Below the pieces are notes generated by a model, which saw only the letters and a list, made by a program, of their open reading frames with translations, was not told the DNA's origin and did no database searches. A stretch of 64,000 bases of DNA from Candidatus Parcubacteria bacterium (lineage in GTDB: Bacteria > Patescibacteriota > Patescibacteriia > Patescibacteriales > UBA12075). The stretch is taken from positions 2,553 to 66,552 of the forward strand of contig PKTK01000005.1 in assembly GCA_002869165.1 (NCBI GenBank), given 5' to 3'. Below, piece by piece: positions 32,578-58,452 of this stretch. The number at the start of each line of letters is the position of its first letter. The first letter of the stretch is position 1. The position numbers and the translations under genes are program-made.

Positions 32578-32759
32578 ATGTTTAATTTTTCAATCAAGAA
32601 TTAAAAAATGGAAAATTGTATATTCTTAATTCTTAATTGATAATTTTTAATTGAAAATAATGCGCCCGGATCGAAGAGGCGGAAGCCCCACTGCAGATTA
32701 TTTCAATCTAATATCCAGACAAACATAAATTTATACAGCAAAAGCTATACAAATTTCTG

Positions 32760-38387: not shown

Positions 38388-39764
38388 TTAATTGAAGCTA
38401 GAATATAATGATTGTTTAATTGATTCAATATCTTGTTTAATTTTTTCGTCTTTTTCAAGTTCTTTAGTTATTTTATTATATGCATGCATTGCAGTTGTGT
38501 GATCTCTACCGCCTAATTCTTGCCCAATAGTAGGATAAGAAAAATTAATCTCTTCTCTAAGTAAAAACATAGTAATTTGTCTTGGATAAACTAATTCTTT
38601 TTTTCTACTTTTACCGATTAAGTCTTTATTTTCAATATCAAAATATTGAGAAATTACTTCTAAAATATTTTTTGCTGTAATTGATTTTGATTTATTACTA
38701 TTTATAATTGAGCTTAGAGTGTTTTTAGTGCTCTCAATGGTAGGTTTAGAGTTATTAAACTCATGAAAGGCAATAAGACGATTTAAAGCGCCCTCTAGCT
38801 CTCTAATGTTGTTCTGAACATTGTTAGCAATATAGTAAAGTATTTCTCCTTCCAACATATAATTCTTTTCTCGACACTTTGATTCTAGAATTGCAACCCT
38901 GGTTTCAATATCAGGTTGAGTAATATCAGCAATCATCCCCCATTCAAAGCGTGAGAGTAGTCTTTTTTCAAGAGCAGGAATAGATCTAGGAGGTCTATCG
39001 GATGTTAGTACAATTTGTTTATCTGATTGATGAAGTTCGTTAAAAGTATGGAAGAATTCTTCTTGAGTACCATCCTTACCTCCCATAAATTGAATATCAT
39101 CTATTAAAAGAAGGTCAACATTTCTATATTTATCTTTAAAATTCTTTGCTTGACCTGATTTAACAGAGTGAATATAGTCATTGGTAAATTTTTCACAAGT
39201 AACATACATCACATTTTCGGTTTTTTTAGATACCATATGTCCAATGGCTTGCAAAATATGTGTTTTTCCAAGACCCACTCCTCCATAAATAAATAATGGG
39301 TTATAAGCTTTACCGGGATTTGCTGAAACCGCTTGACAGGCAGCGTGAGCTAATTCATTTCCTTTTCCTACAATAAAATTATCAAAAATATATTTTAAAT
39401 TTAAACCAAACCTATTAACTGGAGTTGAAGGGAGAGTGGCTGGTGTTTCCTGGATACTATCAACTTGCTTTTGCGCAGTTGATTTATTAAATAAATTTGC
39501 GCTAGGATCAGCTTTTTTAGTTTCTACTTTATAAAATATTTCAGAAATTTTTTGATTTGCAATATTTTCCAGGGCTTCTGAAATAATACTGTGGTATTTT
39601 TTTTCTAACCAAGCTTTTGTGAAAGTGTTGGGAACACAAATAACAATTTTATCATCTTCAAACGAAGAGATAAAAGTGTTTTTAAACCAAGTGGTAAAGT
39701 TAGCGCGACTTAGATTGAGTTCTATTTCACCAAGAACAGATTGCCATAGTTGCTCATTATTCAT
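38388..39764 (-). CDS. dnaA: chromosomal replication initiator DnaA
   Basis: Walker A GGVGLGKTHIL, DDIQFMGGK, and the C-terminal DNA-binding signature GGRDHTTAMHAYNKI. Confidence 0.95.
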   Translation of the reverse strand: MNNEQLWQSVLGEIELNLSRANFTTWFKNTFISSFEDDKIVICVPNTFTKAWLEKKYHSIISEALENIANQKISEIFYKVETKKADPSANLFNKSTAQKQVDSIQETPATLPSTPVNRFGLNLKYIFDNFIVGKGNELAHAACQAVSANPGKAYNPLFIYGGVGLGKTHILQAIGHMVSKKTENVMYVTCEKFTNDYIHSVKSGQAKNFKDKYRNVDLLLIDDIQFMGGKDGTQEEFFHTFNELHQSDKQIVLTSDRPPRSIPALEKRLLSRFEWGMIADITQPDIETRVAILESKCREKNYMLEGEILYYIANNVQNNIRELEGALNRLIAFHEFNNSKPTIESTKNTLSSIINSNKSKSITAKNILEVISQYFDIENKDLIGKSRKKELVYPRQITMFLLREEINFSYPTIGQELGGRDHTTAMHAYNKITKELEKDEKIKQDIESIKQSLYSSFN

Positions 39765-43854: not shown

Positions 43855-44156
43855 TTTTCAAATCACCTTTTGTTAAAATATTAGTCTAAAAATCTTTCTT
43901 TTCTGTACAAGAGCGAATTAACACAAAGACCAGTTAATGAAATTACATTACTATGATTAAAAACAATAAAAGATTTTCTAGAAAACATTTTTTTGTCACG
44001 TTTTTTTGATAGTTTTTTACATTTCTTCACGTCTTTTCCTCTTTTGTTTTTTTTATTTCCTGTCATTCCCGCCGAGCGAAGCGAGGAAAGGGAATCTCAT
44101 AAATGTGCCTTCAAACAAAAACTCAATATAAGCTTCGCGAGTAACACAGCAAATAA

Positions 44157-47286: not shown

Positions 47287-47374
47287 AGTTATTTTTGTAT
47301 ATTTGATAATTAATTTATAGTTTAATTCTAATCCAAATCAACTAGAATATCAAGCCACAACCCTCCCCTTTTAC

Positions 47375-47575
47375 TTTATCATTACGAGTGGATCCGTCAG
47401 GCGGCGGAGAAAAATCCCATGAACATGGAAATTGATCGGCTCCAGTTAGTAACAGCCACCTCAAACAATGCTTTTCTTTTAGTCATTTTCACTTCCTTTT
47501 TTGTCATTCCCGCAAGGCGGGAAGGAGGTGAATTGCAAAGCAAGATAGGCCACCCTGGAGTGTCCAGAAATTTAA
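47375..47575 (+). repeat. two tandem long units of the GTCAT-hairpin repeat family
   Basis: Unit 1 (47375-47480) runs TTTATCATTACGAG...ACAGCCACCTCAAACAATGCTTTTCTTTT. Unit 2 starts at TTGTCAT (47501) with a perfect hairpin TTCCCGC-AAG-GCGGGAA (47507-47523), followed by GGTGAATTGC...CCCTGGAGTGTCC, which is homologous to 53683-53726. Confidence 0.65.
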
Positions 47576-47880
47576 TTAAACCTGTAAGCTTACTTTTTGC
47601 AAGAGTAAAAGTAACAAAAAGTTTTAGGGGCCCCTGCCTGCGGTCAGGCAGTGATTCGCTATAGAAAATAATATTCCTCCTGCTACCACCAATGAGGCTA
47701 ATTTAGCTCTCTAAAAAACCTAATAAGGACACATAAAAACGTTTTTTGTTGATGTATAATTTGCTTGTACAGATCGATTAATAAGTGATATATAAGTTTA
47801 TAAATATTTGAAGAATTAAGTAGTATAAGCTAAAATTTAACATAATAAAAACACTACATTATTGCAGTGTTTTTATTATG

Positions 47881-47954
<74 letters not shown>

Positions 47955-48050
47955 CTGTTTATTCAATTAAAAATTGGCAATTAAATATTAAAAATGTTGT
48001 TCTATTTGGAACATGTTAGAATATATACATAAATCTTTAATTGTAGAACG

Positions 48051-48122
48051 TGTCCCCACCAGGAATCGAACCTAGATTTAGGGTTTAGGAAACCCTCGTT
48101 CTATCCATTGAACTACAGGGAC
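48051..48122 (-). tRNA. tRNA-Arg (anticodon CCU)
   Basis: The reverse complement reads GTCCCTGTAGTTCAATGGATAGAACGAGGGTTTCCTAAACCCTAAATCTAGGTTCGATTCCTGGTGGGGACA, with anticodon loop TTCCTAA. Confidence 0.85.
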
Positions 48123-48719
48123 TGAAAATAAATAGAACCATTGGTATATCCCTGGTTCATGTATATACTATAAAGCATTATTTAAGATTTGGCAATATTA
48201 TATGTAATAATTTATCCACTAGCAAGAATATTAAAAATAGTATAAAATAGGGGATAGATAGAGGTGTTTTTGGGGATACTATAAGTTAATAAACATATAG
48301 TATTTTTTCTAAAAATAGCTTAAAAAACTTAAGTCTACAGTATTCTAGACTTAAGTTACCAAAATAAAACAAAAACACAAATAAAAACATATTTTTTAAG
48401 ACAAAAAGTATGTTTTTATTTATTTTAGTTCCATGTAGAACTAAAATTATGAATTATTATAGGTGGTTTCTTCGCTTACTTATAATAATTAAACATTTTA
48501 ACAAATAAATTGTTCAAATAAGCAAAATGAAAAACAAAAATTACAGTAATATTTATTATTTTAAAGATAAGTCCACACTACTGTAGACTTAAGTTTTTTT
48601 GTACACAATTACAGTGGAAAAGTGTATAAAACTATATAATTTAGCTAATATTAGGGAAATATTAAAGTGGATAAATAGGGGATAAGCCAATTTAAGTCCA
48701 CAATATCCTAGACAATACT

Positions 48720-53569: not shown

Positions 53570-53644
53570 GAATTAAGAATTAAGAATTTTGAATTAAGAA
53601 TTAAGAATTAAGAATTAAGAATTAAGAATTAAGAATTAAGAATA
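53570..53644. repeat. 7-bp microsatellite (AATTAAG)n
   Basis: Two copies, a TTT interruption, then six perfect copies of AATTAAG and a partial copy. Confidence 0.9.
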
Positions 53645-53655
53645 ACCTCTTTTAG

Positions 53656-53792
53656 TTGTCATTTTGAAGCGTTATCGAAGAAGAAGGTGAATTGCCGAAG
53701 ACAAGAGAGATTGCCCTGGAGTATCCCTTGAATATGAGGATAAGTAGGTTGCTGCAAGCAACCGCCACCACAAACAACACTTCTGTCTTTTT
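53656..53792 (+). repeat. long unit of the GTCAT repeat family
   Basis: TTGTCATTTTGAAGCG...GAAGGTGAATTGCCGAAGACAAGAGAGATTGCCCTGGAGTATCC...GGTTGCTGCAAGCAACCGCCACCACAAACAACACTTCTGTCTTTTTTT. It is homologous to 47501-47575 and to the tails at 47452-47480 and 3241-3280 (reverse strand). Confidence 0.65.
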
Positions 53793-54034
53793 TTATAATT
53801 ATTCCCCTCCTTTACAAGGAGGGGTTGGGGTGATTATCTTAAATTAATGCATTGAAAATTGTTTAAAAATTACAAAGTGCCTGAAAGGTAAAAATTATAA
53901 ATTAAAAATTGCAAAAATAAATATTTTTAAATAAAAAATAAACACAAACTTTAAAAAATAATGCTAATTGAAAATAAAACAGAGAAGTGTTACACTATTT
54001 AAAAGAAATTGTTATTAATAATCGTAATAAGAGT

Positions 54035-55391: not shown

Positions 55392-55970
55392 TTATGCAGG
55401 AATTGCAAATGTACAAGCTTGTTTTTTGTCGCCAATATTTACTTTTGCTTCAAAAATAAATACCCTTGATCCTTTTTCTATGTTTGGTGTAAGTGAACAC
55501 CAGGCCAATTTATCACCGCCGATATTTACAGCTCCTATGTTGTGACTAGGCAGTGGAAAAGATTCTGATTCAGTAGATACGGTTGGTTTTTTTTCATTTT
55601 CTTTTAAGATCTGAGCTTCTGCAGTAAATTTTTCAATTAATGCAAGTTTTTCATCTCTTGTTTTCGTAATTAATTCGTCACTGTAATTTGAGTAATAACC
55701 AGTTGTGAGTTCTGCATGAACTATCAGCTCTTCTTTGGTGGCAAAAAAATTATATTATTCGAAATAATCAGAGTCAATATCAGGTCTATTTAAATTATAG
55801 CGAGTATCGATTGAAATTTCTCTGTGGAAAATTTCTTTGCAATGATCACATTGCCAGAACTCATCTGATTTAAAAATCCTATTTTGCTCGACCTCAAAAG
55901 CAGTTTCTGAAAATTTTTTAAGCCTGCCCTTTTCGCAGTCACATTCTACATAAGTTATAATTTTTGGCAT
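55392..55970 (-). pseudogene. zinc-ribbon paralog interrupted by one in-frame TAA
   Basis: The track ORF 55755..55970 (MPKIITYVECDCEKGRL...DSDYFE) ends at the TAA at 55755-55757. The same frame continues for 121 codons (YNFFATKEELIVHAEL...NIGAVNIGGDKLAWCSL...FAIPA) to the TAA at 55392. The continuation aligns with the C-terminal half of the upstream paralog and contains no Met. Confidence 0.75.
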
Positions 55971-55981
55971 TATGTATCCTC

Positions 55982-56545
55982 CTATCTTTTGATAGCTATA
56001 TAATATTCATATTCTTCACCAAAAATAGAAACGGTATTATAAGAAATTATAATACTATCACCTTCTTTGATATCTGAATCAATAAGACACCAGGCAAAGT
56101 TAAATTTTGAAATTTTAACAGCTCCAATATTTGAATTTGCCGCAGGAAATATATCACTAAGAGAAGTGCCAACAGAAAAAGATAAATCTGTATGATCTTT
56201 TCGCAAAGTAGCCTCTTTTATTTTTCTCAGTGTGATAATGAGATCTTCGTGCATTGGCAAAAAGCATCCAAATATTTGACCTGTTATATCAATTATTTCT
56301 TCTTTGGTGGTTGAAAATGTAAGTTTTATAAATTCTTGATAAACTGTTTTTGATGTGTCGTCCAGAGCATTTTTGCTTTTGTCGCGTTGGAAAATCGATA
56401 AACATTTATCACATTGCCAGAATTCACTGCACTCGTTAAACCGGTTTCCCTTTGAATCGCTAGAAGTATAAATACTTGTTTCCGCAAATTCAGTGAGTTT
56501 GCCTTTTTCGCAATCACATTCTACATAGTTTATAATTTTTGGCAT
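55982..56545 (-). CDS. hypothetical protein: N-terminal CxC...CxxC zinc-ribbon-like module + beta-rich C-terminal domain
   Basis: MPKIINYVECDCEKGKL...FWQCDKC, with AGGAGAG upstream. It is a full-length paralog of 55392..55970. No family recognised. Confidence 0.6.
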   Translation of the reverse strand: MPKIINYVECDCEKGKLTEFAETSIYTSSDSKGNRFNECSEFWQCDKCLSIFQRDKSKNALDDTSKTVYQEFIKLTFSTTKEEIIDITGQIFGCFLPMHEDLIITLRKIKEATLRKDHTDLSFSVGTSLSDIFPAANSNIGAVKISKFNFAWCLIDSDIKEGDSIIISYNTVSIFGEEYEYYIAIKR

Positions 56546-57833: not shown

Positions 57834-58055
57834 TTTGTCATTCCCGCCTGCCCCGTCTTCTTGCGGGGGCGAGCGAATATTTTTCTCTTTGTCATCCTGG
57901 GGCTCGGAACGAAGTGAAGAGAACCCGGGATCCATCGTTTTGATTGCGGTAAAATTTTACTTGTCATTTCGAACGAAGCGAAGCGAAGAGAGAAATCTAT
58001 TTTTTTTCTCTTAAAATACGTATTATAGATCTCTCATTTCATTCGAGATGACAAA
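57834..58055. repeat. cluster of four short GTCAT-hairpin units (three direct, one inverted)
   Basis: Units at 57834-57880, 57887-57933, 57960-57997 and 58028-58055 (inverted). Each has TTTGTCAT, a stem beginning at the AT, and a purine-rich loop with GAAGCGA/GAAGTGA. Confidence 0.75.
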
Positions 58056-58154: not shown

Positions 58155-58415
58155 ATGAGTTTTAATAAAACAATGCAGGCCTTAGCTGATCCGACTAGAA
58201 GAACGATATTAGAAAAATTAAAGAAAAAAGATATGCCAGTGGGGGAATTGGCTAAGAATTTTGATATTACCTTGCCTAGTTTGTCACACCATTTAAATAT
58301 CTTAAAACAAGCCGATTTAGTAACATCTAGAAGAAAAGGACAAGAAATGATTTATTCACTAAATTTAAGTGTCTTTGAAGGTGTTGCCAAAACCCTGGCT
58401 AAGTTTTTTAAATAA
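58155..58415 (+). CDS. ArsR/SmtB-family (SdpR-like) transcriptional repressor
   Basis: LADPTRRTILEKL...VGELAKNFDITLPSLSHHLNILKQADLV, the winged HTH of the ArsR family, 86 aa. Confidence 0.85.
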   Translation: MSFNKTMQALADPTRRTILEKLKKKDMPVGELAKNFDITLPSLSHHLNILKQADLVTSRRKGQEMIYSLNLSVFEGVAKTLAKFFK

Positions 58416-58420
58416 AATTC

Positions 58421-58452
58421 TTTGTCATTCCTGCGAAGGCAGGCATGACAAA
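58421..58452 (+). repeat. perfect nested GTCAT hairpin between arsR and the SdpI-like gene
   Basis: TTTGTCAT-T-CCTGC-GAAG-GCAGG-C-ATGACAAA, starting 6 nt after the arsR stop. Confidence 0.75.

Follow-up and report, generated by a model that had tools for sequence, protein, structure and literature searches.

The 64,000-nucleotide window analysed here (positions 2,553 to 66,552 of contig PKTK01000005.1, forward strand, from assembly GCA_002869165.1 of a Candidatus Parcubacteria bacterium) holds a family of diverged intergenic units, some 105–140 nt long, each opened by a GTCAT-type head and an adjoining palindrome. With a probability of roughly 0.55, these units can be read as a lineage-specific, non-coding mosaic interspersed DNA repeat with an Ssn-motif head, by analogy with the intergenic mosaic elements known from Neisseria as NIMEs, or with the bacterial interspersed mosaic elements (BIMEs) and paired repetitive extragenic palindromic (REP) sequences, or REPINs, of Escherichia coli. 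Their hairpins are retained despite about 40% sequence divergence, their modules are combined differently from copy to copy, and their heads resemble the GTCAT-hairpin motifs that a cognate Ssn nuclease recognises strand-specifically in single-stranded DNA (Chenal et al. 2025, PMC11893778). As a system it belongs to a known kind, and very few copies underlie the evidence.

The repeat family

The DNA of the source genome that was read amounts to 84 kb, including the window, which is AT-rich (31.5% GC), and 9.6 kb of the same contig before it (locus L003). The contig matches JGI 3300007102 Ga0102541_1056127 (239 kb), and a 99.93%-identical contig of 330 kb is present in ENA ERZ794999 (NODE_10). 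Since the copies are merely 56–64% identical in pairs, blastn-short at default scoring fails to link them, and this insensitive search was replaced by Smith-Waterman scores compared with shuffles and by an nhmmer profile trained on three units, c53656, c47375 and c3346. Among these, the Smith-Waterman z-scores are 6.8 (c53656/c47375), 8.0 (c53656/c3346) and 7.7 (c47375/c3346). The profile recovered a fourth full copy that was absent from its training set, cL003 (L003 7505–7616, minus strand, E=1.9e-10), about 2 kb before position 1 of the window on the same contig, the profile match itself spanning 7523–7620. A covariance model built from the four copies scores them at 80–104 bits, finds nothing better than E=0.5 elsewhere in the window, and has 0 matches in 375 kb of unrelated loci, negative controls that include loci from a GTDB scan with a PLD-like protein. 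Given these z-scores, the cL003 match and the model scores without control matches, the repeat family is genuine and not confined to the window.

Motif counts are of the same tenor. TTTGTCAT occurs 20 times in the window against 6.05 expected, a number reached by 0 of 100 shuffles; GGTGAATTGC matches exactly at 47527 and 53686 only, and CCCTGGAGTRTCC is found only at 47553 and 53714, with 0.5 occurrences expected even when two mismatches are allowed. One might still ask whether the likeness is due to chance or to the low complexity of A/T-rich spacers, given the silence of blastn-short and the T-rich or A-rich flanks of several units. That idea is already refuted by alignment z-scores of 6.8–10.2, by the independent copy, by units richer in GC than the genome, and by control DNA free of model matches; its probability is negligible.

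An earlier reading of the sequence alone had reported at least four loci sharing three ordered segments (a GTCAT head with a hairpin, a second block and a tail), strictly intergenic and GC-richer than their surroundings. All the motifs it quoted were found at the coordinates claimed, the units do lie between long open reading frames (ORFs), and their GC content is 36–54%. It had also proposed aligning the copies and modelling their covariance, which gave the significant scores above. The family thus stands, but the full set of segments occurs in c53656 only: c47375 and c3346 lack segment 2, and c47501 lacks segment 3. Accordingly, c53656 and c47501 align with z=4.2, while c47501 against c47375 or c3346 reaches a non-significant 1.3. 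The supposed single copy at 47501 to about 47700 turned out to be a composite of a head resembling the Neisseria Transformation Sequence (NTS), a module A and a degenerate inverted unit. Likewise, the spacer 47290–47880, described as made almost entirely of units, is covered by them over about 325 of its 590 bp, the rest holding a bactofilin promoter-like site (47353–47325, minus strand) and the tRNA-Ala terminator.

Anatomy of the units

Read in the GTCAT orientation, a unit consists of a head, an optional module A, a hairpin P4, a hairpin P3 and a tail. The head has the form (TTAG)-N0-2-TGTCAT followed by the palindrome. Module A, GRAGGTGAATTGC..CAAGA..CCCTGGAGTRTCC, is found only in c53656 and c47501, while P4, P3 and the tail together make up module B, present in c53656, c47375, c3346 and cL003. 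P4 follows AATCCC-N8-GGGAAT, and P3 varies from GGTTGCT/AGCAACC in c53656 to GGTCACC/GGTGACC in cL003 and GGT-AT-CAC/GTGACC in c3346. The tail reads CMGCC....AAACAAYRC before a T-rich run, and both c3346 and cL003 finish in ATCTTRATAG. The tail repeats the head imperfectly in inverted form and pairs with it, so that the whole unit can fold back on itself. The features within the window are as follows (SRM, Ssn-related motif; dRS3, a neisserial inverted repeat described below).

47374–47480 (+): c47375, full unit (nhmmer E=2.6e-32, training copy)
47376–47383 (+): variant head of c47375, TTATCAT
47413–47433 (+): P4 of c47375, AATCCC-N8-GGAAAT
47438–47457 (+): P3 of c47375
47453–47480 (+): tail of c47375, CAGCCACCTCAAACAATGCTTTTCTTTT
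47481–47499 (+): linker from c47375 to the following head, containing a T-run and another AGTCAT
47500–47523 (+): NTS/SRM-like head, TTTGTCAT-TCCCGC-AAG-GCGGGA-A (DNA fold -8.6 kcal/mol, z=-5.3)
47524–47565 (+): module A, GGAGGTGAATTGC..CAAGA..CCCTGGAGTGTCC, common only to 53683–53726 (z=4.2)
about 47600–47701 (-): c47695, degenerate inverted unit (z=3.7 against c3346 and 1.9 against cL003; reverse-complement score 163 against c3346)
47673–47701 (-): head of c47695, TTAGCCTCATT...GGAGGAAT
47627–47655 (-): P3-like part of c47695, ATCACTGCCTGACCGC, also in c3346
53570–53643 (unstranded): (GAATTAA) x10.6 microsatellite, which stops some 15 nt 5' of the c53656 GTCAT
53652–53794 (+): c53656, the fullest unit (Smith-Waterman, nhmmer and covariance model)
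53652–53663 (+): head of c53656, TTAGTTGTCATT
53683–53726 (+): module A of c53656
53722–53742 (+): P4 of c53656
53747–53763 (+): P3 of c53656, GGTTGCT/AGCAACC
53762–53794 (+): tail of c53656
53801–53826 (+): dRS3-like hairpin ATTCCCCTCC-TTTACAA-GGAGGGGTT, without GTC, closing the 3' side of c53656 (recognised by reading)
3234–3346 (-): c3346, full unit without module A (nhmmer E=4.9e-23, training copy)
3315–3346 (-): head of c3346, TTTGTCATTCT...GGAAT
3297–3317 (-): P4 of c3346
3278–3296 (-): P3 of c3346
3234–3279 (-): tail and end of c3346, ...ATCTTGATAG
3162–3260 (+): c3162, degenerate unit tail-to-tail with c3346 (weak; covariance model E=0.58, z=2.3–3.8)
3162–3199 (+): head of c3162, GTCATCTC...GAGATC
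3198–3218 (+): P4-like part of c3162, TCTCTTAGACGTAAAAATAGC
44059–44125 (+): mini-unit, head TGTCATTCCC-N20-GGGAATC and then directly a tail-like GCCTTCAAACAAAAAC (nhmmer E=0.068)
57834–57878, 57888–57932 and 57960–57997 (+): three tandem short GTCAT heads, GTCAT-arm...arm'-(C)
58028–58055 (-): short head GTCATCTCGAATGAAATGAGAGATC, with a loop like that of the cL003 head
58421–58452 (unstranded): minimal palindromic doublet TTTGTCAT-TCCTGC-GAAG-GCAGG-C-ATGACAAA
56698–56733 (-): possible strongly reduced unit, GTCATTCT..ATTTCTTATAATTTAATAG (likeness by eye only)

Units occur singly, in tandem and tail-to-tail (3162/3346 and 47500/47695). The array at 47374–47701 alone holds three units in two orientations, c47695 lying tail-to-tail with the plus-strand head at 47500; support for c47695 is moderate, since neither nhmmer nor the covariance model detects it. 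Modules A and B are combined differently among copies, the former being confined to two of them and the latter to four, and the mini-unit at 44059–44125 is made of a head and a tail.

Structure is retained along with this variable composition. On the strand opposite GTCAT, GUUGUUU pairs with AAAUGAC in 4/4 copies, and in c47375, the sole unit with an ATCAT head, the CAAC of the tail is replaced by CAAT, a compensatory double change. In the RNAalifold structure of the four copies, 90% of the pair cells are standard pairs, against 32–52% when partners are slid by 1–3 columns, and six pairs show double changes, including those of P3 (GGTTGCT/AGCAACC against GGTCACC/GGTGACC). When columns were shuffled, the observed value was reached in at most 23 of 500 trials on four of five measures, and in 56 of 500 for the fifth, further pair types. 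Drawn from four sequences, this compensatory retention of structure is suggestive. Of G-U pairs, the structure has 19 when read on the strand opposite GTCAT but only 3 on the GTCAT strand itself. This asymmetry is biased, for the opposite strand, on which the structure was predicted, is rich in G and T. Taken one by one, the sequences fold with shuffle-level stability, except for the opposite strand of c53656 (z=-2.55).

The head and the Ssn motif

The NTS, CGTCATTCCCGCGMAVGCGGGAATCYRG, and the wider SRMs are hairpin repeats bound and cut by SsnA, a 94-aa GIY-YIG nuclease (cd10448) that acts only on single-stranded DNA, only on the GTCAT strand, and whose cut falls 5' of the motif, a few nucleotides away (PMC11893778). 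Most important for SsnA are the three bases preceding the palindrome and the C following it, loop content being dispensable (PMC11893778). SRMs are enriched in particular lineages, where they often flank ssnA; Ssn homologues belong mostly to Pseudomonadati yet are spread across bacterial phyla, Patescibacteria going unmentioned in the main text of that report (PMC11893778).

The resemblance is closest at 47500–47523, which agrees with the NTS core (GTCATTCCCGC...GCGGGAA) at 18/18 fixed positions, exact stem TCCCGC/GCGGGA included, and differs in a loop of 3 nt instead of 4. TGTCAT heads stand at 47500, 53656, 3346 (minus), 3162, 44062, 57834, 57888, 57960, 58048 (minus), 58421 and in cL003, while c47375 has TATCAT; the upstream part of the SRM, HGTCWY, is found directly 5' of the palindrome, as in the known motifs. 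Behind it, the head at 44062 reads GTCATTCCC-N20-GGGAATC, with dRS3 arms and a C after the palindrome; that of cL003 reads GTCATTCC-N11-GGAATC, those at 3162 and 58048 (minus) GTCATCTC..GAGATC, that at 57960 GTCATTTC..GAAATC, and that at 57888 GTCATCCTGGG..CCCGGGATC. The C that follows the palindrome is present at 3162, 44062, 57888, 57960, 58048 (minus) and in cL003, and absent at 47500, 57834, c3346 and c53656. As with SRMs, the heads are oriented, intergenic, clustered, multi-copy and strongly enriched in one lineage.

The differences are just as clear. Of the hairpin said to follow GTCAT, the strong example at 47503–47526 (the fold listed above) was borne out, but elsewhere the stem is marginal, at about 5 bp, and the loop long, 11–30 nt in most heads; a scan for complementary arms found 15 sites against 8.6 expected. 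The published SRM pattern, HGTCWYN(0-2)YYVSBRHN(0-5)WNVSBRGN(0-2)RNCYNB, used here as a regular expression that recovers the NTS consensus, matches no head because the loops are longer and the arms shorter; compared with the pattern by reading, the 47500 head misses it solely through its one-base-shorter loop. The units also extend far beyond the 28-nt motif, and their host belongs to the Patescibacteria. With the strict pattern unmatched and most heads folding marginally, the heads are NTS-like rather than strict SRMs.

Between 57834 and 58452, five short GTCAT heads bracket the gene of an 86-aa ArsR-type regulator (58155–58415; Pfam assignment from the public gene table). An "NTS-gene-NTS" layout is typical for ssnA, and the gene surrounded here is a different one.

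Distribution in related genomes

Homologues of the thioredoxin-family membrane protein encoded beside c53656 are labelled Patescibacteria, Parcubacteria or Falkowbacteria by their sources, and the closest non-identical one is just 67% identical, so that no close relative is available for comparison. Four related contigs (L006, L008, L009 and L010) nevertheless conserve the gene order trxB, RNase HII, methyltransferase, 128-aa protein, UPF0102, Big_13 protein and thioredoxin-family protein. The spacer between the last two genes, which carries c53656, measures 478 nt here against 88–142 nt in the four relatives, and in L010 it holds a terminator only; the 190-nt spacer between the bactofilin gene and the tRNA in L010 is equally devoid of units. 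Empty sites, one of the signs by which the sequence-only reading proposed to recognise a mobile element, do therefore exist in the sense that orthologous spacers are short and lack units. Neither nhmmer nor the covariance model finds a unit in 63 kb of related contigs. Target-site duplications, the other sign it named, did not materialise: no direct repeat of fixed length flanks the copies. TTGTCAT, for its part, occurs 3.3–5.7 times per 10 kb in the source genome and 0–1.6 times in the relatives. The units thus appear here as DNA inserted relative to related genomes, and the comparison shows a lineage-specific presence. Scanning GTDB genomes for the junction between microsatellite and head, GAATTAAGAATAN{5,9}TTAGYTGTCAT, gave 0 matches. 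The single match of the tail pattern CMGCCACCNCAAACAAYRCTTYT in a metagenome collection, of which the source contig is not part, lies inside a prmC-like gene and was rejected as chance.

Both c53656 and cL003 are preceded by an (AATTAAG)n microsatellite, with the junction AAGAATA-N7-TTAGYTGTCATT; a third such array, at 32622–32652, has no unit. More generally, heptamer microsatellites of the types (ATAACAC)n and (GAATTAA)n occur at 2566–2596, 2636–2665, 3375–3408, 32622–32652 and 53570–53643 and at 7625–7683 of L003. They directly follow the 3' ends of genes or tRNAs, often beside terminator hairpins. The sole 7-nt gap between the two near-identical assemblies equals one repeat length and falls in the spacer with the (GAATTAA)n array (485 against 478 nt).

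Mosaic repeats as analogues

In NIMEs, 20-bp dRS3 inverted repeats (ATTCCC-N8-GGGAAT) flank more than 100 families of 50–150-bp RS modules in variable arrays, some of these modules carrying short terminal inverted repeats (Bentley et al. 2007, PMC1797815); about half of the dRS3 copies have since been recognised as longer NTS repeats (PMC11893778). This element is the best analogy for the units. In both, module families are diverged and some possess short terminal inverted repeats, hairpins richer in GC alternate with bodies poorer in it, and arrays mix modules, as A and B are variously combined here. Hairpins of the ATTCCC-N8-GGGAAT type may bound modules of about 50–150 bp here as well, P4 itself being of the form AATCCC-N8-GGGAAT: c53656 lies between its GTCAT head and the ATTCCCCTCC..GGAGGGGTT hairpin, the 47500 head comes after c47375, and an inverted head at 3162 bounds c3346; but the bounding is not uniform, cL003 having no obvious 3' hairpin. 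Unlike NIMEs, the units number about seven in 84 kb and form short arrays. The head is built into the unit, where internal hairpins and a pairing tail accompany it; two copies adjoin heptamer microsatellites, and nothing here ties the units to surface-antigen genes or natural transformation.

REP, REPIN and BIME elements are proteobacterial; they end in a GTAG-type motif, and their REP-associated tyrosine transposases (RAYTs) are IS200/IS605-like TnpA enzymes of the HUH Y1 class. The units would share with them extragenic hairpin repeats recognised as single-stranded DNA, and do share the occurrence as singlets, inverted doublets (as in REPINs) and mosaics at the 3' ends of genes. They differ by a GTCAT instead of a GTAG-type terminal motif and by a putative GIY-YIG instead of an HUH Y1 enzyme, and the 84 kb read from the source genome showed no RAYT. 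Low copy number, strong divergence and the Patescibacteria host, along with the built-in head, the conserved internal hairpins, the pairing tail and the heptamer microsatellites beside some units, set the units apart from both NIMEs and REP/BIME elements. The authors of the Ssn study themselves name REP/REPIN/BIME elements, with their RAYTs resembling single-stranded DNA transposases, as an analogue (PMC11893778).

A further comparison is with the Correia repeat enclosed elements and other miniature inverted-repeat transposable elements (MITEs) of bacteria, which are likewise about 100–150 bp long, intergenic and non-coding, with terminal inverted repeats. In Correia elements the terminal inverted repeats are long (26–51 bp) and well conserved, there is a TA duplication, and copies are highly identical; the units show none of this.

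Weighing the explanations

In the mosaic-repeat reading, the head "GTCAT + palindrome (+ C)" would be a long-loop variant of the SRM/NTS. A hairpin-specific enzyme acting on single-stranded DNA, be it an Ssn homologue encoded elsewhere in the genome or an analogous protein, would together with recombination and repair at the heads spread, shuffle and maintain the units, much as may happen with dRS3 and RS modules in NIMEs or with REP/REPIN/BIME elements. If the units serve the cell at all, for instance by modulating recombination or the uptake of single-stranded DNA or by buffering gene 3' ends, that role would be secondary. Several observations weigh against this reading. Just four full copies underlie the analysis. 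No Ssn (GIY-YIG) gene was found in the 84 kb by six-frame regular-expression scans or in the Pfam gene tables, the published SRM pattern has 0 matches in the window or the other loci of the genome, and the heads other than 47500, with arms of 5–8 bp and long loops, fold at shuffle level. Ssn would read the GTCAT strand, whereas the G-U pairs favour its complement. As for mobility, there is no clear target-site duplication around the units and no presence/absence polymorphism between the two 99.93%-identical assemblies; an identity of 56–64% implies old copies and therefore no sign of recent movement; and the "empty-site" relatives, only 58–67% identical in a neighbouring protein, attest absence, not a datable insertion.

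The sequence-only reading had offered two explanations of its own, a small-RNA gene and a non-autonomous mobile element. Were the units genes for structured small RNAs of about 100–140 nt, the likeliest strand would be the one opposite to that first read, 5' ..AAGCGUUGUUUG-P3-P4-..-AAUGACAAA 3', closed by a helix P1 between the tail and the complement of GTCAT. RNAalifold on this strand yields P1, an extended P3 and P4 in 4/4 copies, and the paired cells, the six compensatory pairs, the G-U count and the fold of c53656 all agree with it, structure being retained at so low an identity. Because its hairpins are maintained by compensatory change, this explanation keeps some weight; it is nonetheless unlikely. 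There is no Rfam match: with Rfam 15, tRNAs alone pass in the window, and E-value searches over three loci returned noise far below the gathering scores. A sigma-70-type scan of both strands revealed no promoter or terminator associated with the units, its counts being at shuffle level, although the consensus of Patescibacteria may differ; on the opposite strand, no unit has a promoter-like site upstream and no terminator lies at a consistent place. Furthermore, c47375 and c3346 fold at shuffle level on both strands, the G-U asymmetry carries the bias described above, and opposite-strand units would run against the flanking genes at 3/4 loci. Modules are also gained and lost between copies (module A, the 44059 mini-unit), which is unusual for a functional RNA, and the 63 kb of relatives contain no homologue. 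A broader proposal, rather speculative, would see in the units more than inert repeats: a selected family of fold-back structures in which P1 closes P3 and P4 and which compensatory change has preserved at about 60% identity. They could be structured small RNAs from the strand opposite GTCAT. Or they could be single-stranded DNA structures that extend the Ssn-motif system; in that event they would form the first NIME-type mosaic outside Neisseria, in a reduced Patescibacteria genome, and the 5' heptamer microsatellites would be a by-product of nicking.

Of the mobile-element suggestion, what holds is that the units are interspersed, small, multi-copy and non-coding, have imperfectly inverted ends (GTCAT head against tail) and are missing from the orthologous spacers of relatives; the minimal palindrome TTTGTCAT...ATGACAAA at 58421–58452 also suits it. 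A classical MITE, however, would be a deletion derivative of an insertion sequence, moved in trans by a DDE transposase through TTTGTCAT terminal inverted repeats and flanked by target-site duplications, and this is improbable. The gene tables of the 84 kb list neither a transposase gene nor a parent insertion sequence, target-site duplications are not consistent (TTAG/ATAG-like flanks at some copies were noted by eye only), and the copies are far from near-identical and vary in their internal modules. Nor are the ends those of a MITE: their inverted pairing is imperfect over 7 bp, with two G-U pairs on one strand that are two mismatches on the other. The head motif, moreover, is already assigned to the single-stranded DNA nuclease Ssn, a different enzyme class. 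With no target-site duplication, transposase or young copies, and with a head that is a known Ssn-related motif, a mosaic of the NIME/BIME type fits better. Finally, the units could be decayed small protein genes on the opposite strand, such as MTKRKALFEVAVTNWSRSISMFMGFFSAA at 47397–47486 (minus) with a Shine-Dalgarno-like AGGAAG upstream, and the opposite-strand translations do have K-x-K-A-L-F-x-V-A-V-(T/A)-(C/N) in common. That peptide merely mirrors the conserved nucleotide tail. The frame of c3346 is shifted relative to the other copies, with a stop 13 codons past its only ATG, cL003 has a stop 4 codons after the ATG, c53656 lacks an ATG start, and the ORFs differ in length and ends; comparison of frames largely refutes coding, which is left with very little probability.

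Genomic surroundings

Beside the unit cluster, the spacer between tRNA-Arg and trxB (48123–48719) contains TTAAGTCCACA / TTAAGTCTACA boxes that recur and are in part palindromic, together with two TTATCCACT sites, and boxes of the same kind stand at the syntenic place in a relative (L010 2330–3090). The cumulative GC skew has its minimum at 44–48 kb. The spacer looks like oriC, about 8 kb from dnaA (38388–39764) and about 450 bp from the cluster, and this DnaA-box-like region at 48.1–48.7 kb fits the skew minimum better than an origin adjacent to dnaA. With oriC beside dnaA (about 40 kb), 9/13 heads would lie on the lagging-strand template, against 7/13 with oriC at 48.1–48.7 kb.

The tRNA-Ala(ggc)/tRNA-Arg(cct) pair (47880–48122) is inverted with respect to L006 481–649 and L010 2121–2310, and the unit cluster adjoins one boundary of the inverted segment. 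An inversion mediated by the units was considered and set aside, the other boundary (48123–48240) having no significant similarity to them (one borderline z=3.3).

Three further loci deserve mention. On the plus strand, 2804–3155 combines a strong promoter-like TTTACA-17-TATTAT with an upstream TG (2804–2832) and a strong terminator (3128–3152), and the roughly 300 nt between these signals have neither a long ORF nor an Rfam match; the region may be an unannotated non-coding RNA. The PLD-like (cardiolipin-synthase-type) gene at 422–1894 (plus) may have been acquired horizontally, to judge from a GTDB scan that returned only Cloacimonadales, Bacillota and Gammaproteobacteria, at 36–47% identity, and no Patescibacteria, the scan being seeded on six peptide words and not a ranked homology search. 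Lastly, 55392–55970 and 55982–56545 (both minus) are tandem paralogues with a Cys-rich N-terminus (MPKII.YVECDCEKG.L); the former has an in-frame TAA at codon 72, though the public gene call gives 192 residues, and is probably a pseudogene.

Implications

An explanation for the short GTCAT and hairpin repeats of many phyla came in 2025, when they were described as Ssn nuclease targets, and in 2007 NIMEs were reported as unobserved in non-neisserial genomes (PMC1797815). If the mosaic-repeat reading is true, the range of the Ssn-motif system would include the candidate phyla radiation, and Ssn motifs would nucleate larger mosaic repeats outside Neisseria. For annotators, the GC-richer intergenic blocks seen here would then be repeats, and not small-RNA genes or small ORFs.

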